Virus genome (UHGV): UHGV-0122002
Strand: one strand, 5' to 3'
Source of the DNA: a virus
Length of the DNA stretch: 64,000 bases
Positions 4,309 to 31,375 of the stretch are shown here, in pieces. The notes under the pieces are model-generated. The model saw only the letters and a list, made by a program, of their open reading frames with translations. It was not told where the DNA came from and searched no databases. The position numbers were made by a program, and so were the translations under genes. Numbering within the stretch: position 1 is the stretch's first letter; every line of letters starts with the position of its first letter.

Positions 4309-6228
4309 ATGGAACAGTTCAATATCAATAAAGGGGTGACGATCAAGCCTGGGCTTGACGTGCTTCCCCCGCCAGTGACTGATGATGAATATCGCGCATT
4401 AATGGCCGGTGAGGACCGCTATCTGATGACGGAATCCAACACCCTGGAGGAAATCGAGGCTACGTTCTTCTATGACACGCCGATCCACTGGTGTGCTACG
4501 GATTTACTGGAGGCGATTAGTTCTACTCGTTTGCAGTTACACCGGACCATGCAGGCATTTGTCCGGGCATTGAACCAGAAGCTGAATGGTACCGGAATCT
4601 CTGCGGGGAGTGATAAAACGGGGGATGTGGCCCAGAGCGGCGCGCGCGCGATCGGCGGTGCTGAAATTGGCCGGGCACGTAACGTTAACGGGCTGCCGGT
4701 CCTGCCAGCCATTATTCCGCTCAGTGATGGTCAGACTATCAGCATTCTGTTTCATAGCCCGACAGCGGAAAACCGGATCACCAATAGCGATACGCTGATT
4801 GCTTTCCAGTTCTTACTGAATAAAAAAGACGTTACTCATACCGTTGCTCCGATGAGTGGACGTGATATGACGCTGGCGCAGGTCACCATGAAACTTGCCA
4901 ACCTTGCAGAGAAAAACTCGGCAAAATTCCAGCGTGCGCAGAAGAAGAAAAAAGCCCTGGTTGATGAAATAACCCAACTACAGGCTGACAGTGACCAGAA
5001 AGAGGATGCCATGAGCGACCTCGCGGATCAGGTGACAGCGGTAGAAGGGCAGAAGGTAGATCTGGAGCAGAAAATTAACGCTGTTGCATCGGAAGCGGAT
5101 TCTCTTTATGAAGAGAATGAGCGTTTGCAGACGGAGATTGATCAGCTCAATCGCACAGGTGGGCGCGATACCATTGATCCAGCGGGGATGACTGGTGGGC
5201 ACTCGCGCGCGCTGACGGATCGCCTTGCCAGTATCAAAAATCGTATGCATATGAACGGGGAAGTGACGCTCAGTAATGGAGCATCAATGAAGCAATTCAT
5301 TGAGGACGGCGAAGGGTATATCCAGTTAACCGATTCGGATGGCAGCGTGTACATGATCAAGGCTAAATCCATACAGGGTGTGGACATGGCAGATGCGATC
5401 GGCAAGCTGTTTAAAGCCTATAAAGCGGGTAATGTATCGGAATATCTGGTCCAACCAGAAGAACATAAACCGGAAAACGTCGAACCTGAACCAGCGGAGG
5501 ATACCGGTAGCTCTTCGCCTGAACCAGAAGTCTCTGTAGGTGCATATCGATATGCCTTGCAAATGCGTCCGGCGGCCCCTGGCGCAATACCTGAAGGTAA
5601 CAAAGCAATTCTGCCGCGCCCTGATGAAGGTGACCCGTATTATGAATATGCACGCTACGGCATTGCTACTTACGATACCCCGCTTTCTGATCAGCAAATG
5701 AGTGAGTACGACCTGAAGTTATTGCCTCGCGAGGATTCTTTCGACTTCCTGGCGAAGACACTTACTAATGGTCCGTTTGGCAAATATGCACAAAAAGCTC
5801 TGGATCTGGCCACCAGCTCACCAGACGAGTTCCGCGTAATGCTGAAAACTCAGTTTCAAAAAACTTTCCCCAATATTGCGTTTCCGGGGGGCGCTGGCAC
5901 CGAGAAAATGGTGCAGAGCATGATCAATGCATTGCAGGCCGAAGTCGGTGAGATTACTCAGCCAGAACCTGCCCCGGCACAGCCTGATGAAACGGTTAGC
6001 GAAGCAGATGCAGAGGCTAATAAAGCCATTGAATATCTCAATAACGTGATGGATATGCAAAGCACTGACATGGCGGAGATCCGTAACGCCCGGGGTAATG
6101 TCCGGGAAGCGATTGCAGCCCTTCAGGCTGCCGGGCGTTTTGAGGAAAACGAAGAGCTGGTTAATGGCGCTGCTCGCCACCTGGCTGATCTGCTGGTAGC
6201 AATCCAGAAAGCGGGGGTAGCGGCATGA
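4309..6228 (+). CDS. darA: DarA-like capsid internal anti-restriction protein
   Basis: 639 aa (the size of P1 DarA), in the hdf-darA-ddrA-ddrB order, coiled-coil centre; assignment by size and synteny recalled from memory. Confidence 0.7.
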   Translation: MEQFNINKGVTIKPGLDVLPPPVTDDEYRALMAGEDRYLMTESNTLEEIEATFFYDTPIHWCATDLLEAISSTRLQLHRTMQAFVRALNQKLNGTGISAGSDKTGDVAQSGARAIGGAEIGRARNVNGLPVLPAIIPLSDGQTISILFHSPTAENRITNSDTLIAFQFLLNKKDVTHTVAPMSGRDMTLAQVTMKLANLAEKNSAKFQRAQKKKKALVDEITQLQADSDQKEDAMSDLADQVTAVEGQKVDLEQKINAVASEADSLYEENERLQTEIDQLNRTGGRDTIDPAGMTGGHSRALTDRLASIKNRMHMNGEVTLSNGASMKQFIEDGEGYIQLTDSDGSVYMIKAKSIQGVDMADAIGKLFKAYKAGNVSEYLVQPEEHKPENVEPEPAEDTGSSSPEPEVSVGAYRYALQMRPAAPGAIPEGNKAILPRPDEGDPYYEYARYGIATYDTPLSDQQMSEYDLKLLPREDSFDFLAKTLTNGPFGKYAQKALDLATSSPDEFRVMLKTQFQKTFPNIAFPGGAGTEKMVQSMINALQAEVGEITQPEPAPAQPDETVSEADAEANKAIEYLNNVMDMQSTDMAEIRNARGNVREAIAALQAAGRFEENEELVNGAARHLADLLVAIQKAGVAA

Positions 6229-6590
6229 CACTATCAGCTATTGAGTTAATGGATCTCAGCGATAAGTTGGATGCTCTGATGTCCAAAGCGGCTATCGCGA
6301 GTGGTATGGAGTTGCTGGATATCAGCGATGAAATTGACCAGATCATGCAACAGATGGGGTACGGCGCGTCCGGCGGTGGTAGTGGCGAGGAAAAACAACC
6401 TTCGGAACATGATGGTGTGCCAAAACTGGTTGCTGATTTCCTGGCTGATAAATTCGTCGATCAGAGCACTGATGCATTTATCGGTACGTTACAGGACTTG
6501 AGTCAATATGTTGGCACATACATCGACCTGGACCAGGTTAAACAGCACACGGCGGCATGGATAGCCGCCAACATTAAAGAGGCAGCGTGA
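6225..6590 (+). CDS. DdrA-like small protein of the dar operon
   Basis: 121 aa, start overlaps darA stop; by position only. Confidence 0.5.
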   Translation: MTLSAIELMDLSDKLDALMSKAAIASGMELLDISDEIDQIMQQMGYGASGGGSGEEKQPSEHDGVPKLVADFLADKFVDQSTDAFIGTLQDLSQYVGTYIDLDQVKQHTAAWIAANIKEAA

Positions 6591-7937
6591 CATCCTCCAC
6601 GCCCCGAAGGGCGTGGATTCCTGCTACGTTCAGGCTGTCGCCTGAATCATTTCGGTGGGTTCCTGCTTCAACGGGCGGCCTGACTGCACCATCCCTCCAC
6701 AGGCAAGAACGGCGTGCCCCGCCGCTAAAATGTTACGAGCGCCGTTTACATCGGCGTTCGCTGTATATCCACATACCTGGCATCTGAATTTACTTTGTGA
6801 CAGGCGATTTTCTTTCGCTGTATGACCACAGCACGCGCAACGCTGGCTTGTGTACGCTGGCGGAACAGCAAGCACCTGACCGCCACGCCAGAGCTGCTTG
6901 TACTCAAGCTGGCGGCGCATTTCATACCAGCCCTGATCCAGTATCGAACGGTTTAAACCTGATTTTGCCCGGACATTGCGCCCCGGCTGGCTGACCGTAC
7001 CCGCTGCTGACTTTGACATGTTGCTGACCTTCAAATCCTCAATGACTATCATTGCGTGGTTTTTGCTGACGGTCGTTGTGACTTTGTGAAGGTAGTCCCT
7101 GCGGATATTTGCGATACGGGAATGCAGTCGCTGTATTTTGCGTTTCTGCTTCTGCCAGTTGTTGCTGAATTTGACCTTGCGGCTTAACTGTCGCTGAAGT
7201 CTCGCCAGCTTCTTCTGGTTTTTCTGAAAACTGTTTACAGGTTCAAAGACTGTGCCATCTGACAGCGTGGCGAGTTTAGCCACGCCAGCATCCAGTCCGA
7301 CCATTGATGCTGAAGGGTGAACCGGAGTTGATACTTCATTTTCAGTCTGAATACTGATGTACCACTTACCGCAGGACTGGCTGACAGTGACATTTTTCAC
7401 AACACCCGTGACCTGACGGCTATTCCGGTAGCGCATCCAGCCAAGTTTCGGCAGAAAAATACGGCTGTTTTCCTGATCGAGCTTAACGCCCTGCGGGTAG
7501 CGGAATGCATCATTCTGTCCCCGCTTTTTGAATCGGGGAAAAGCAGCCCGCTTCTGGAAGAAGTTTTTGTAAGCCCGCTCAAGGTCTTTCAGTGACTGTT
7601 GCAATGGCTGTGAGGGAGAATCTTTAAGCCATTCGGTTTCAGTGTCTTTTTTCCACTCAACCAACCAGGAAGCCATTTTCGTGTAAGGGATGTATTTTTT
7701 ACCGGCCTCATGATTCTCATTCTGAAGCGCCAGAGCACGGTTGAAAACGAAACGACAAGCTCCGGCAAAGCGCCTCATTTGACGCTCCTGTTGACCATCT
7801 GGTTTTAACCGGAATTTGAATGACACCTGTTGTTTCATGTCACTATTTTAAGCAAAAATAGCCGGGAGGAAAACTGTGCCTTATATCCCCACTATGAGGA
7901 GCGTAGGGGGCGGCACATTGGATAAGGCGTAACAGGG
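6591..7937 (-). mobile_element. IS200/IS605-family insertion sequence carrying only tnpB (IS1341-like), boundaries approximate
   Basis: About 1.35 kb separating ddrA from ddrB; contains intact tnpB; perfect hairpin TCCACGCCC-CGAA-GGGCGTGGA at 6596-6617 at the tnpB-3' end. Confidence 0.65.
6630..7838 (-). CDS. tnpB: TnpB (OrfB) RNA-guided endonuclease-type transposase accessory protein
   Basis: 402 aa; N-terminal OrfB helix-turn-helix region, RuvC-like motifs, C-terminal zinc finger CACCGH...[18 protein letters not shown]. Confidence 0.9.
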
Positions 7938-10925
7938 ATGAGCTTAAGCGATCAGGTGGTAATGGCCACCAGCATAGAAACGCTGATCGAGCTGCTAAAG
8001 AACCTGCCCGATTATGGGCGGGTTTCGTATGTGGTGACAGCGAAGGGAGACGAGGTAAAAACAGCGTTTGATATCGTCGATGCCTCAGCTCTTTTGGTAT
8101 CCAATACTCTGGATGGGAAAATTAATCCTGACTATCCCCAGGAACTTCAACCGCGCGACCGGACCCGCGCATCCAGCCTTCTTCAGGTTAACCAGATATC
8201 CAAAGATTTGCGGCCTGCTCAGCTTACTGATTCCGGTTTATCCAGCCATGGCGCGCCGATAATTGGTGAGGACAATGCCGTTGAGTCAGGTAATGGACGG
8301 ACCATGGGGATCATCAAAGCCTATCAGGACGGCAATGCGGATCGGTATCGTGAGTACCTGATTGAACATGCGACCGAATTCGGCATACCTCCTGAAAAGG
8401 TTGAATCAATGACGGCTCCGGTACTGGTGCGCCGCCGGTTAACTAAGGTTGACCGTGTTCAGTTTGCCAAGGACTCAAATATTTCTGATCTCCAGGAAAT
8501 GGCAGCCAGTGAAAAGGCTTTTGTTGATGCCGACAGCATAACACCGGCGATGATGGCGTTGTTTAACCCGTCAGAAAGTGGAGATCTGCTTAGCCGCAGT
8601 AATGACGCGTTTATTCGCGGATTTATGACGCAAGTTGGTGCCACACAGGCGGCTGGCCTTGTAACTGAAGATGGGCGACCAACACGGCAACTTGTAGACC
8701 GTATACAAAACGCGATCTTTGCCAAGGCATATAAGGATGCGCGCCTGGTAAGGATGGTTGCAGAAGAACCTGATCCGGATATGCGTAATGTTCTGACGGC
8801 GCTTAATGCGGCAGCCAATGATTTTGTCCAGATGCAGGCTTTATCAGGAGAAGCGCACAAGCAGGCTGTGACAACTATTGTTGATGGCATTGAGACAGCG
8901 GATAGCCTCGATAAAAAGGCGCTGGCGGCATTGAAAGATGCGGTAGACCTGGTAAGGCAATCGAAGGAGTCAGGCCAGCATATTACCGATGTTATTGCTC
9001 AGGGGGATATGTTCAGCGAAACGGCCCCGGAAGTGAAAGCACTCGCGTTGTTCATCGTCGCGAATAACCGTAGCGCGAAGCGTATGGCCACCGCCTTTAA
9101 ATTGATGGCTCAACGTATCAATGATGAGTTACAGCACCAGGGCCAGGCGCTGGGGGATATGTTTGGCGGTGGTGATGTGTCGTTACAGGATATCCTTCGC
9201 CAGGTGTCTCAGGAACTGGAAAACGAAGGCATGCAAGGGATATCCGGCGGTCTTTTCGAGTCCGTTTCCGGCGGTAGTTACAACGGTGTTGCTCCATATA
9301 CCAGCTTGCTATTACATCGGGCATCCGGCATCAAAGACATTATTCATCTGATCAGGCTGCTTTCCCGTACAGATCCCCAGGATGAACAGCTTGTACAAGT
9401 GCTTGCGCATTTTGTTCGAATGCCTGTTGCCGACGTGAATAAATGGTGCCGATTATTCGGTATCAGCAATTCGTTACTTCGCGGATTGTTAAATCACGCA
9501 TCCTCCCTTGGGCGCGACGGCTTTGATGAGATAGCGCAGGCGATAAAAAACGGAGATATGCCACCAGCTATTGACTGGTTTTCCATTCGCCCAACCAGGG
9601 TGAAAGCATTCCTTAGCGCGGCGCATTCGGCATCACCATTGGCAGAAATGATTCAGAGGTTGTCGCTCATATTCACAGACCATACCGCGTTGGGTGATCT
9701 GACTCTGGACGAGATGAAAGAAGCCTCCATTCAGTGGGCCGATCAACAAAATGAGGTTAACTCAGACTTCTTGCCAGCATTCAGGAAGGCCGTTAGTAAA
9801 GCGGATGATGCCCGTGGAATTCTGAAGGCATTTAAGGCATTGCAAAGTCGGGTTAATAAACATGTCGGTGATATCGATGGGGTAACGGCGGAAGGCAGGG
9901 ATATCCTTAAAGAGCACGGCATAACGCCAGAGTTTATTGATGAGATCAGGACGGATATGCAGCGTGAGGTCGTATCGTCCCTGCAAATCGTAGCCAGAGC
10001 GTTGGCGGATGCTAATCCGAAGAGTGCGGCCATTGTTAACCGGGTTATTGGTGATATTGAAGCATCGGAGGGCATGGGGGCGCTGAAACTCTTCCTTTCG
10101 CGAGCGTTTAATCCTAACGGCAATATTCTCCCTGGCATTATTGGTGAGGCTAAAAAGTATGTCAGTGAAGAAGAACTTGAGCAGCTTGACCAACTACTTA
10201 AGCGATTCTCATATAACCCGCAGATACGCTGGCAAATGAATCAGCGAAGTATGGGTTCGGTCCACGAGAAAGTGTTATCTGCCATGAACAGTGCGATCGC
10301 AAACTCATCCGTATCTGAAGAAAAAGCTCTTGAGTGGGCCGACTCTTTTATCACAGAAGAAGTGGAAGAAGCCCGCGCTGGACAGAATGGTGGGATAGAC
10401 CTGCGCAAGGAACTTGCTGATATTTATCGCCTGACCGGCGGGAAAATATCGACCTTATCAAAGGTAGTTCACCACCAGGGAAGGGCATATGCAAATCTTA
10501 ATGGTGTTGTTGCTGTCAATTTGAACGATGAAAATGCAAGTGCACTGTGGCACGAGCTGGGTCATCATCTTGAGTACAGTAACCCTGGTTTGTTAGAGAA
10601 AGCCCGGTCATTCCTGAAGGCCAATGTTGAAGGGGATAAGCCATCTTTCGTCAATATCGGTGGGCGTGGCAAGCCTGAATGGTGCTTCAGATCTCGATTG
10701 AGTAATATTTATATGGCGAAGGTATACCCGCCAGCCTCAGTAAGTAACACCGGGAAAATTCGGCAGAAATCACCGACTATTTCCAAAACGTCAGCAACGG
10801 AAGTATTCTCTATGGCTCTTCAGTTGTATCATGACAAAGAGGCCGCTGCCGCATCACTGATGAATGGTGACGGATTGCTGGAACTGTTATTAGGTGTGGC
10901 AAAGGAGCTAAATAATGCAGATTAA
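7938..10925 (+). CDS. ddrB: DdrB-like large dar-operon protein with an HExxH motif
   Basis: 995 aa; WHELGHHLEYSNPG at residue ~872 (bases 10551-10568); position after ddrA; name by synteny. Confidence 0.55.
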   Translation: MSLSDQVVMATSIETLIELLKNLPDYGRVSYVVTAKGDEVKTAFDIVDASALLVSNTLDGKINPDYPQELQPRDRTRASSLLQVNQISKDLRPAQLTDSGLSSHGAPIIGEDNAVESGNGRTMGIIKAYQDGNADRYREYLIEHATEFGIPPEKVESMTAPVLVRRRLTKVDRVQFAKDSNISDLQEMAASEKAFVDADSITPAMMALFNPSESGDLLSRSNDAFIRGFMTQVGATQAAGLVTEDGRPTRQLVDRIQNAIFAKAYKDARLVRMVAEEPDPDMRNVLTALNAAANDFVQMQALSGEAHKQAVTTIVDGIETADSLDKKALAALKDAVDLVRQSKESGQHITDVIAQGDMFSETAPEVKALALFIVANNRSAKRMATAFKLMAQRINDELQHQGQALGDMFGGGDVSLQDILRQVSQELENEGMQGISGGLFESVSGGSYNGVAPYTSLLLHRASGIKDIIHLIRLLSRTDPQDEQLVQVLAHFVRMPVADVNKWCRLFGISNSLLRGLLNHASSLGRDGFDEIAQAIKNGDMPPAIDWFSIRPTRVKAFLSAAHSASPLAEMIQRLSLIFTDHTALGDLTLDEMKEASIQWADQQNEVNSDFLPAFRKAVSKADDARGILKAFKALQSRVNKHVGDIDGVTAEGRDILKEHGITPEFIDEIRTDMQREVVSSLQIVARALADANPKSAAIVNRVIGDIEASEGMGALKLFLSRAFNPNGNILPGIIGEAKKYVSEEELEQLDQLLKRFSYNPQIRWQMNQRSMGSVHEKVLSAMNSAIANSSVSEEKALEWADSFITEEVEEARAGQNGGIDLRKELADIYRLTGGKISTLSKVVHHQGRAYANLNGVVAVNLNDENASALWHELGHHLEYSNPGLLEKARSFLKANVEGDKPSFVNIGGRGKPEWCFRSRLSNIYMAKVYPPASVSNTGKIRQKSPTISKTSATEVFSMALQLYHDKEAAAASLMNGDGLLELLLGVAKELNNAD

Positions 10926-25480: not shown

Positions 25481-26041
25481 TTAGTGCATGATGTTTGCCA
25501 TCTCATAGGCGTCAGCCAGCAACTCCATCTCTGACTTGTTCAGCAAGGTGAATTCTTTCTTGCCTCCAACCACACCATCGGCATGAACAGGGACCAGCCA
25601 GGGGTATTTTTCTCTTACTTCAGCCGGTGCTGCATGCTGGTGGTGCCATCTACAAAGGGGCAATTGCTTTTTGTGACAACCCGGCGCGGTACGACCGGAG
25701 ATATGGTGCAGAGATACCTCTCCAGATATTACTCCATGCATGTAGCAGGCAATGCAGGGGAGAGCGCCAAGAGCATTGGCGATGCGCCGTTCCTCCGCCA
25801 TTAGTGTTCTCCCCTTCAAGCCACGAGATTTTATTTTTACCGCGCTTTTCCGCGTTTTGCTGGCTGGTGGGCGCTCTTTCTGTTTAGCGATACGGCGGTC
25901 GATAGAATCCCGCATTTTCTGATATTGCGATTCTCGCCAAGCGGGGTCAGCCAACTTTTCCCGTTGCCGAGCGATCGCTCGTTCTCTGGCTGCCTTCTGC
26001 CACTCGCGGCGCTGTTCAAGTTTTTGTTCGATTGTTTTCAT
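25481..26041 (-). CDS. ref: Ref-like HNH-motif endonuclease (recombination enhancement function)
   Basis: 186 aa; basic N-terminus, Cys/His cluster CIACYMHG...HHISGRTAPGCHKKQLPLCRWHHQ typical of HNH nucleases. Confidence 0.7.
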   Translation of the reverse strand: MKTIEQKLEQRREWQKAARERAIARQREKLADPAWRESQYQKMRDSIDRRIAKQKERPPASKTRKSAVKIKSRGLKGRTLMAEERRIANALGALPCIACYMHGVISGEVSLHHISGRTAPGCHKKQLPLCRWHHQHAAPAEVREKYPWLVPVHADGVVGGKKEFTLLNKSEMELLADAYEMANIMH

Positions 26042-26053
26042 ATGGCAAAAAAA

Positions 26054-26071
26054 AAGGCGGCCTAATGGCCG
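26054..26071 (-). other. Hairpin in the ref leader (terminator or attenuator-like)
   Basis: GGCGGCC-TAAT-GGCCGCC followed on the minus strand by a T-run, ~10 bp upstream of the ref start. Confidence 0.4.
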
Positions 26072-26128
26072 CCAATGATGTCAAGGAGTTAAGTAATGGC
26101 AACGTCTTCGTAGTTGACAAAAACTGCG

Positions 26129-26157
26129 GCTTAATTATAGCAATCAATTAGAGCAAT
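26129..26157 (-). promoter_or_regulatory. Tandem C1 operator-like sites upstream of ref
   Basis: TTAATTATAGCAAT and ATCAATTAGAGCAAT adjacent; TTGACA at 26114. Confidence 0.5.
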
Positions 26158-26288
26158 GGTAGATATTTTGTTAATCGCGAATCACATTTTTTCACTTCAG
26201 TACCTGTGTGCTATACTCCTTCTTGATTGATTGGATGCGGAATACAAACCCGCTCTTTTGTGCAGCCTGGCTCCTTGCCAGGCTTTTT

Positions 26289-26600
26289 TTATTTCATCAT
26301 GGAAGCTGTTAACGCTTTGGATCTTGCTGAACTGATTGAAAGGGCATTGTTTACCTTACCCAGGAGTTCGCCAAATTCCACCATCACTCTAGTAAGCCCG
26401 CGCCGCGCTTCCTCCTCCGTTGCATTCATCACAAAATGTTCAGCACTCCGCATGCTTTTAACGGGGAACGCAACAGATATCGAGTCGATATCAGGCATCC
26501 TATCGCTCAACTTTACGGTGACAATGACAGATGGTGACTGAATTTGAGAGCTTACAGACAGCACCACATATTTTCCGTCTATTTTGAAATCCTTCCGCAT
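26289..26600 (-). CDS. Hypothetical protein (P1 cra position)
   Basis: 103 aa directly downstream of cre. Confidence 0.45.
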   Translation of the reverse strand: MRKDFKIDGKYVVLSVSSQIQSPSVIVTVKLSDRMPDIDSISVAFPVKSMRSAEHFVMNATEEEARRGLTRVMVEFGELLGKVNNALSISSARSKALTASMMK

Positions 26601-26616
26601 GTGTCACCATAAATAT

Positions 26617-26633
26617 CAAATAATTAGAGCAAT
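26617..26633 (-). promoter_or_regulatory. C1 operator-like site between cre and the cra-like gene
   Basis: CAAATAATTAGAGCAAT, core ATTAGAGCAAT intact. Confidence 0.4.
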
Positions 26634-26650
26634 CAGTTGCAAATAAACGG

Positions 26651-27682
26651 CTAATCGCCATCTTCCAGCAGGCGCACCATTGCCCCCGTTTCACTATCCA
26701 GGTTACGAATGTAGTTCATGACAATATTTACGTTGGTCCAGCCACCAGCTTGCATGATCTCCGGTATTGAAACTCCGGCGCGGGCCATATCTCGCGCGGC
26801 TCCGACACGGGCACTGTGTCCAGACCAGGCCAGGTATCTCTGCCCAGAGTCATCCTTAGCGCCGTAAATCAATCGATGAGTTGCTTCAAAAATCCCTTCC
26901 AGAGCGCGAGTTGATAGCTGGCTGGTGGCAGATGGCGCGGCAACACCATTTTTTCTGACACGGCAAAACAGGTAGTTATTCGGATCATCAGCCACACCAG
27001 AGACAGAAATCCATCGCTCGACCAGTTTAGTTACCCCCAGGCTAAGTGCCTTCTCTACACCTGCGGTGCTAACCAGTGTTTTCGTTCTGCCAATATGGAT
27101 TAACATTCTCCCACCGTCAGTACGTGAGATATCTTTAACCCTGATCCTGGCAATTTCGGCTATACGTAACAGGGTGTTATAAGCAATCCCCAGAAATGCC
27201 AGATTCCGTATATCCTGGCAGCGATCGCTATTTTCCATGAGTGAACGAACCTGGTCGAAATCAGTGCGTTCGAACGCCAATGCCTGTTTTGCACGTTCAC
27301 CGGCATCAACGTTTTCTTTTCGAATCCGCCGCATGACCAGTGAAACAGCATTGCTGTCACTTGGTCGTGGCAGCCCGGACCGACGATGAAGCATGTTTAG
27401 CTGGCCCAAATGTTGCTGGATAGTTTTTACTGCCAGACCGCGCGCCTGAAGATATAGAAGATAATCGCGAACATCTTCAGGTTCTGCGGGAAACCACTTC
27501 CGGTTATTCAACTTGCACCATGCCGCCCACGACCGGCAAACGGACAGAAGCATTTTCCAGGTATGCTCAGAAAACGCCTGGCGATCCCTGAACATGTCCA
27601 TCAGGTTCTTGCGAACCTCATCACTCGTTGCATCGACCGGTAATGCAGGCAAATTTTGGTGTACGGTCAGTAAATTGGACAT
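26651..27682 (-). CDS. cre: Cre tyrosine site-specific recombinase
   Basis: 343 aa beginning MSNLLTVHQNLPALPVDATSDEVRKNLMDMFRDRQAFSEHTWKMLLSVCR and ending MVRLLEDGD; matches Cre as remembered; loxP 420 bp upstream. Confidence 0.97.
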   Translation of the reverse strand: MSNLLTVHQNLPALPVDATSDEVRKNLMDMFRDRQAFSEHTWKMLLSVCRSWAAWCKLNNRKWFPAEPEDVRDYLLYLQARGLAVKTIQQHLGQLNMLHRRSGLPRPSDSNAVSLVMRRIRKENVDAGERAKQALAFERTDFDQVRSLMENSDRCQDIRNLAFLGIAYNTLLRIAEIARIRVKDISRTDGGRMLIHIGRTKTLVSTAGVEKALSLGVTKLVERWISVSGVADDPNNYLFCRVRKNGVAAPSATSQLSTRALEGIFEATHRLIYGAKDDSGQRYLAWSGHSARVGAARDMARAGVSIPEIMQAGGWTNVNIVMNYIRNLDSETGAMVRLLEDGD

Positions 27683-31056: not shown

Positions 31057-31375
31057 ATTGGCAGCCTCCTTAGACGTTGGTATGTAACCACCGCAGAAGA
31101 GACCAATCTTGCTGGCGGTGGACTGTACGGAGTTGGCCTTACTGGCGTCCAAGGTAACCAGCCTACCCGAAGGTAGCCCCATACAGCCCACCATTGTAGA
31201 GGTGTGCGTGTACGCCGATACAAAAAAAAGACGCGAGCGGCGTCTGTATCGCCTTAGACTTAAGCGGGAGGCCAATCCCGGCACCCGTTTTAATGAGGTG
31301 CCTGATAAGCATAAACCGAAAATGCCTCAAGGCGCAAGAGGTCAGGCTCAATGTAACATCGGTAGTTAAAAAACA

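Follow-up and report, generated by a model that had tools for sequence, protein, structure and literature searches.

An IS609-like element with tnpB and without tnpA at the ddrA–ddrB junction of a P1-like phage-plasmid, with a predicted guide against the uninterrupted junction

The DNA analyzed here is a stretch of 64,000 nucleotides from the virus genome UHGV-0122002 (the window), which is part of a P1-like phage-plasmid and carries an insertion sequence (IS) of the IS200/IS605 family between its ddrA and ddrB genes. It is likely that this insertion is a non-autonomous IS609-like element with tnpB and without tnpA, whose predicted guide would target the uninterrupted ddrA–ddrB junction. The insertion as such is already known and annotated as an IS609-like tnpB-only element.

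Boundaries, ends and coding content of the element

The ddrA–ddrB junction of phage P1 consists of GAGGCAGC joined directly to ATAAGGCG, and the window contains the same two sequences separated by 1335 bp, without target duplication. This exact rejoining of the flanks places the element at 6587–7921. The initial annotation had assigned it to 6591–7937, an interval that does represent the gap between ddrA and ddrB but not the extent of the element. It had also described tnpB as lying antisense between ddrA-like and ddrB-like genes that would otherwise be adjacent, which agrees with the spacing of 12 nt between the two genes in P1, versus 1347 nt in the window. The features of the element are as follows.

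6587–7921, minus strand (the top strand of the element is the minus strand of the window): whole element, tnpA-less IS609-like insertion of the IS200/IS605 family, 1335 bp
6587–6590, minus strand: right-end terminus TCAC, reading G+TGA on the plus strand
6596–6617, no strand assigned: right-end subterminal hairpin, arms 6596–6604 and 6609–6617, 9 bp perfectly paired, 4-nt loop, 5 nt past the ddrA stop
6630–7838, minus strand: tnpB (insQ) coding sequence, 402 amino acids plus TGA stop
7839–7921, minus strand: left end, 83 bp, with a non-canonical hairpin at 7887–7910 and no tnpA before tnpB
7922–7925, minus strand: target and transposon-associated motif (TAM) TTAT, reading ATAA on the plus strand

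Over the 3 kb at 5800–8800, the window is identical at 98.3% to phage RCS47 and at 96.8% to phage SJ46, and P1, P7 and most other relatives align with the flanks only (56% coverage, in two pieces). The alignment to empty-site genomes confirms the proposed insertion, with discrete ends for the element and none of it in P1, P7 or most relatives; the same tnpB is not present at this position in all relatives, nor does it lack discrete ends. Among the 15 complete copies found at the junction (window included), 14 have an element of 1335 bp.

The right boundary is also fixed independently of P1, because approximately 55 related loci share the right-end motif GGAGGATGTCA followed by A or C, with GGAGGATGTCAA invariant in all of them, and then continue into unrelated flanks. 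These loci were taken from one genome per species (genome_contigs) and range from Enterobacterales to Zetaproteobacteria and Acidobacteriota. In the window the right end closes with GGAGGATGTCAC on the top strand of the element. Its last four bases are TCAC, which also occurs in one distant relative (L054), while approximately 55 relatives have TCAA. At the other end, TTAT or TTAC stands directly 5' of the left end in approximately 35 relatives. TTAT and TCAA are the cleavage sites reported for IS609 (PMC6906374).

The element is inserted 3' of TTAT and is convergent with the dar operon, and the original TAA stop of ddrA lies within the ATAA of this motif. The element begins at the third base of the final ddrA codon, so the present stop codon of ddrA lies inside the element. 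With the G+TGA of the right end, the last alanine codon becomes GCG (P1 has GCA) and is followed by a new stop. DdrA remains 121 amino acids long because the right end rebuilds both. Similar arrangements are observed for the chromosomal IS609 copies at ydcO, yedK and yfeD (L004:1800-1803, L005:1800-1803 and L003:1805-1808), where the annotated host gene takes its stop from the TGA of the right terminus (in the orientation of the host gene, TTGACATCC). The reverse complement of TTAT is ATAA, so insertion occurs a single base upstream of a TAA stop, and the element provides a replacement stop in frame. This IS family may generally limit the damage to its targets by inserting in this way.

The two subterminal hairpins differ in quality. 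The initial annotation had placed a perfect hairpin at 6596–6617 immediately after the ddrA stop; these coordinates are exact, and the hairpin starts 5 nt after the stop codon. It is canonical in type, more stable than shuffled sequences (z −3.35, with 1 of 200 shuffles folding as well), and has a folding energy of −12.1 kcal/mol, compared with −7.7 for the canonical form. It is conserved in relatives, with five pairs showing compensatory change (helix 7 of the structure described below). In single-stranded DNA it would be the hairpin recognized by TnpA, and in the predicted omega-RNA it forms the final helix. The loop at 6605–6608 is CGAA in the window and in RCS47-type copies and its reverse complement TTCG in SJ46-type copies (SJ46, L009; JS01, L012), in which one stem pair is altered.

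The left-end hairpin is unlike that of all relatives. It reads CCCCCTA...TAGTGGGG (CCCCCTACGCTCCTCATAGTGGGG) in the window, versus the canonical CCCCGTCCTTCAGGGCGGGG, whose conservation across relatives includes covariation. The left end of the window, as single-stranded DNA, folds with −6.9 kcal/mol and no better than shuffled sequences (z −1.3), compared with −14.1 kcal/mol (z −2.9) for the canonical left end. No terminal inverted repeat was reported by a scan limited to arms at most 60 nt apart, which yielded hairpins.

The protein encoded by the element is an intact TnpB of 402 amino acids, as the initial annotation had stated. It matches the Pfam families HTH_OrfB_IS605, OrfB_IS605 and Cas12f1-like_TNB, all above the cut-off (E 1e-16 to 1e-34), and the ISDra2 TnpB structures 8exa and 8h1j over its full length (E 2e-53). 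D183, E267 and D363 line up with the catalytic RuvC triad of ISDra2 TnpB, and the zinc finger, with CxxC motifs at 334–337 and 353–356, aligns as well. The full open reading frame (ORF) is present in 14 of the 15 complete copies at the junction. The sole disrupted copy, in Escherichia phage vB_EcoM-813R1 (ON470617.2), is 1333 bp long and frameshifted; read from the start codon its tnpB frame stops after 82 amino acids, and 341 are annotated.

Autonomous members of the IS200/IS605 family encode the Y1 (HUH) transposase TnpA, which the IS1341-type tnpB-only group does not. Neither a tnpA gene nor a second copy of the element occurs anywhere in the 64-kb window, and the distance from tnpB to the tip of the left end is only 83 bp. 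The element is therefore assigned as a non-autonomous member.

Two genes flank the element directly.

6225–6590, plus strand: ddrA homologue, 121 amino acids, of unchanged length despite the insertion
7938–10925, plus strand: ddrB homologue, 995 amino acids, intact, Pfam ddrB-ParB, starting 16 nt past the element

The gene order around the site is hdf, darA, ddrA and ddrB, assigned by Pfam (DarA_N, DarA_C, ddrB-ParB) together with the P1 annotation. At the gathering threshold, Rfam identifies only ordinary P1 RNAs in the whole window, namely C4, isrK and three tRNAs. The C4 antisense RNA, isrK and the tRNAs for Met(cat), Thr and Asn are located at 31111–31301 and 59549–61778, all on the minus strand, and are usual features of P1-type genomes.

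A predicted omega-RNA and its guide

The initial annotation had expected an omega-RNA on the minus strand around 6550–6700, with its guide in the 3' end of ddrA. Both parts of this expectation agree with our analysis, which locates a conserved structure at 6587–6736 with the 3' end of ddrA directly beyond it.

6587–6736, minus strand: predicted omega-RNA scaffold, formed by the 3' end of tnpB and the right end, covarying structure in 33 relatives
6709–6714/6720–6725, 6673–6679/6688–6695, 6626–6635/6640–6650 and 6596–6604/6609–6617, minus strand: helices of the predicted omega-RNA (alignment A5)
6567–6586, minus strand: predicted guide GCTGCCTCTTTAATGT(TGGC), outside the element, reverse complement of the 3' end of ddrA

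Alignment A5 comprises, for 33 relatives, the 150 nt that precede the right-end boundary. The consensus comprises 43 pairs in seven helices, 98.1% of the cells are standard-paired, and the window retains every helix. Compensatory double changes are found at 10 pairs, compared with 4.4±1.0 in column shuffles (none of the 500 shuffles reaches 10) and with 2–5 when the pairing partners are slid by 1–3 columns. In this alignment the 150-nt segment thus shows the conserved, covarying structure that an omega-RNA would have.

The predicted guide is assigned from its position directly 3' of the invariant right-end motif, together with the established mechanism of TnpB (PMC8612924). TTAT followed by this guide is exactly the minus strand of the P1 ddrA–ddrB junction, and no target combining the TAM and the guide is present in the 64-kb window. 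Directly after the predicted 16-nt guide, at 6550–6570 on the minus strand, there is a terminator-like hairpin with a T-rich tail (TGGCGGCTATCCATGCCGCCG TGTGCTGTTT), which is native ddrA antisense sequence. This hairpin could define the 3' end of a tnpB/omega-RNA transcript.

Relatives, distribution and mobility

IS609 of E. coli belongs to the IS605 group of the family. Its chromosomal copies, which adjoin ydcO, yfeD, yedK, yfaV and hslO, have approximately 96% DNA identity to the window over 6588–7822. They share with the window element the TTAT target, the right-end motif and the omega-RNA region. Full-length copies measure approximately 1749 bp end to end; between the left end and tnpB they contain a divergent tnpA, in most cases a pseudogene, which the window lacks. 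In addition, two stretches of the window element are lineage-specific, the first ~30 nt of tnpB and the left end of 83 bp, and the right end terminates in TCAC, not TCAA. A plain deletion derivative of a chromosomal IS609 was considered and ruled out, with homology stopping at 7822 and a different left end.

The window element belongs to a tnpA-less class of approximately 1337 bp; other members occur in Citrobacter (L014) and on another E. coli phage-plasmid (L008). The latter copy (L008:1341-2660) resides on the 92.5-kb, phage-like E. coli plasmid p1_000837 (NZ_CP032875.1); it is IS609-like, has the canonical TTAT/TCAA ends and carries an annotated short tnpA fragment. This copy shows that several sites have received the 1.3-kb form. 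Related copies are common, with approximately two in most E. coli genomes. IS609-like sequence of 85–98% identity is also contained in the records of Morganella phage IME1369_01, filamentous phage If1 (ORF348), two short Salmonella/E. coli 'phage' records and Aeromonas phage AP1.

The same insertion, with the same site, orientation and ends, is carried by RCS47 and SJ46 (insQ in both) and by pSvP1. Venturini et al. 2019 (PMC6906374) described IS609 in P1-like plasmids, including an 'IS609-like sequence (25,544-26,881)' in pSvP1, and our left-end query matches pSvP1 at 25,540–25,675 with 100% identity. The records and papers of these three replicons annotate a transposase or an IS and leave the omega-RNA, the guide target and the altered ends undiscussed. 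In the literature on TnpB in phage-plasmids and on IS609 TnpB, we found no study of the function of this insertion.

A survey of 5426 complete E. coli genomes, together with exact-match patterns applied to IMG/VR, gives the frequency of the two states of the junction. In the complete genomes the junction is empty in 388 cases and filled in 64 (14%); among IMG/VR contigs the numbers are 60 and 15. The junction that the predicted guide matches is thus carried by about 80–86% of related phage-plasmids. A left end at least 95% identical to that of the window is found in 64 of the 5426 genomes, a number that equals the count of filled junctions, the two sets having been counted separately. In PLSDB, such a left end is found only in similar E. 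coli and Salmonella plasmids.

All 15 complete copies at the junction have TCAC and the unusual left end, and these shared traits point to one ancestral insertion at the ddrA–ddrB junction. The altered left-end hairpin and the TCAC terminus further suggest that the substrates of TnpA have degraded since insertion and that the element is probably immobile now. The state of the junction is tied to the flank haplotype within ±200 bp (permutation p 0.01–0.03) and not beyond. An old insertion in a backbone with much recombination would account for this linkage, and so, equally well, would homing with short conversion tracts. The phylogeny of the flanks was tried as a test of single origin and set aside, since insertion-bearing flanks do not cluster beyond ±200 bp and homing and general recombination are not separable in this way. 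Near the dar operon, P1-like backbones appear heavily recombined (loci L093-L167).

Copies of the element differ from each other at 1–4.6% of sites and their flanks at a similar 1.3–3.6%. The ratio of nonsynonymous to synonymous substitution rates (dN/dS) of tnpB is 0.15–0.2 among the copies at the junction. Between the start of tnpB and the right end, only eight sites are lineage-specific. Patches of differences between the window and other copies (L002, L009, L011, L012, L154 and L157) are located, for example, at 494–515, 812–848 and 965–974 nt from the tnpB start.

Possible action at the junction and comparison with known systems

TnpB is an RNA-guided nuclease that cuts TAM-flanked targets (PMC8612924), biases the inheritance of its element (10.1101/2023.03.14.532601) and drives IS-bearing plasmids to fixation, acting as a gene drive on plasmids (PMC11870625). 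In the mechanism proposed here, a single-strand 'peel-and-paste' event with TnpA acting in trans would have inserted the element one time only, in the ancestry of RCS47/SJ46-type P1-like phage-plasmids. A transcript running past the right end into ddrA antisense would provide the guide GCUGCCUCUUUAAUGU(UGGC). TnpB together with this guide RNA would then cut TTAT+GCTGCCTCTTTAATGTTGGC, which is the empty junction of P1 and most P1-like relatives. An insertion-free copy in the same cell may thereby be cut and then lost, or repaired from the insertion-bearing copy, and the cutting of empty copies would keep or spread the element. A more specific version, which we put forward tentatively and consider rather unlikely, holds that the element is an immobilized TnpB–omega-RNA cassette in one P1-like lineage, cutting superinfecting or co-replicating insertion-free relatives, which would be excluded or converted. 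If true, the cassette would be an RNA-guided counterpart of the marker exclusion by phage homing endonucleases, and would explain why the linkage to the flank haplotype is limited to ~200 bp.

Several observations weigh against the guide-directed action of this copy. The differences between copies occur in patches, and the patch alleles are present in other IS609 copies, including chromosomal ones, which indicates repeated gene conversion between prophage and chromosome. Such conversion from chromosomal copies could explain the intact ORF and the low dN/dS without site-specific selection, and it weakens the tnpB ratio as proof of selection. The promoter scan found no promoter-like site for tnpB within the element, the scans for promoters and terminators giving about as many sites as in shuffled sequence. 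The nuclease activity of TnpB and the expression of tnpB and the omega-RNA are predictions for this copy. A search of Rfam at 6000–8500 with E ≤ 1 returned hits on the same strand and at the same place as the predicted scaffold, all of them under their gathering thresholds (HgcC 22.6 vs 50, sot0042 19.5 vs 88 and RAGATH-18 28.1 vs 44.9 bits), and matched no curated omega-RNA family. Moreover, the final base of the scaffold is C, where A is near-invariant. P1 prophages are also present at low copy number, and immunity and incompatibility keep close relatives out, so meetings with empty-site copies may be rare.

Much of this would also suit an inert relic, an immobilized passenger with TnpB and omega-RNA unexpressed or inconsequential and its ORF kept open by gene conversion with chromosomal IS609, which we regard as possible but less than probable. 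The clustering of differences, the presence of approximately 90% of the window alleles at variable sites in other IS609 copies and the few lineage-specific sites from tnpB to the right end accord with a relic, as do the non-canonical left hairpin, the altered right terminus, the frameshifted vB_EcoM-813R1 copy and the supply of related copies in most E. coli genomes. However, TnpB is intact in 14 of 15 copies with every catalytic residue kept, the right-end/omega-RNA hairpin is perfectly paired and stabler than the canonical one, and the target of the guide is common among relatives. The junction might instead be a hot spot at which different phage-plasmids received the element by independent recurrent insertions, and its preferred TTAT target is present; beyond 200 bp, insertion-bearing flanks differ from each other as much as from empty-site copies. 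This alternative is already contradicted and highly improbable, for all 15 complete copies share the orientation, the odd left hairpin, TCAC and a 5' tnpB variant (MKQQVSF), and these shared traits were encountered at no other site.

A regulatory effect on the dar operon is improbable as well. The widened gap between ddrA and ddrB, a weak plus-strand promoter-like site at 7820–7849 pointing toward ddrB, and the divergent tnpA of full-length relatives, which is transcribed toward the ddrB side, would be compatible with ddrB and hxr being uncoupled from ddrA, whether through a polar effect of 1.3 kb of antisense sequence that is not translated or through a new promoter facing outward, and with a changed anti-restriction phenotype. 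The promoter-like site, however, matches at 9 of 12 positions only, and such sites number four versus 2.2 in shuffled sequence. The plus-strand hairpin lacks a following T run and no terminator-like site is called there, and the ribosome-binding region of ddrB is downstream of the insertion point and unchanged. Each of the 10 loci with the insertion that span all of ddrB has its full ORF (995 or 991 amino acids), and pairwise dN/dS is 0.03–0.17 among nine copies of 995 amino acids, the window included. These ratios indicate that ddrB stayed under strong purifying selection after the insertion and was not silenced. The suggestion in the initial annotation that the insertion may be polar on ddrB thus finds no support as far as loss of function is concerned.

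As an annotation the element is routine, because the insertion is recorded in RCS47, SJ46 and pSvP1 and its behavior is predicted by TnpB biology. The added value is modest: it is a natural test case that is apparently dead for transposition, with the nuclease gene and the guide-RNA structure intact and with a target that is the allele of most competing P1-like phage-plasmids. P1-like replicons matter because they spread extended-spectrum beta-lactamase and other resistance genes. If active, the element would lend itself directly to studies of RNA-guided gene drive or exclusion among phage-plasmids, and it would be relevant to P1-based delivery vectors entering strains with such a prophage.

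Among the closest known systems is the TnpB–omega-RNA of ISDra2 from Deinococcus radiodurans, a characterized nuclease to which the window protein aligns over its full length, RuvC D/E/D residues and zinc finger included. The TAM of ISDra2 is TTGAT, compared with TTAT for the window element. In ISDra2 the guide RNA derives from the 3' end of tnpB and the right end, and the TAM is the target site of the transposon (PMC8612924); the same layout is predicted here, for an element that has no tnpA. The plasmid TnpB gene drive of Mears et al. 2025 (PMC11870625) resembles the window in having the element on a plasmid replicon and a guide that matches the insertion-free version, a configuration that biases replication toward IS-bearing plasmids. 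It differs in that the window replicon is a low-copy phage-plasmid, which is also lytic, and its element is apparently unable to transpose further.

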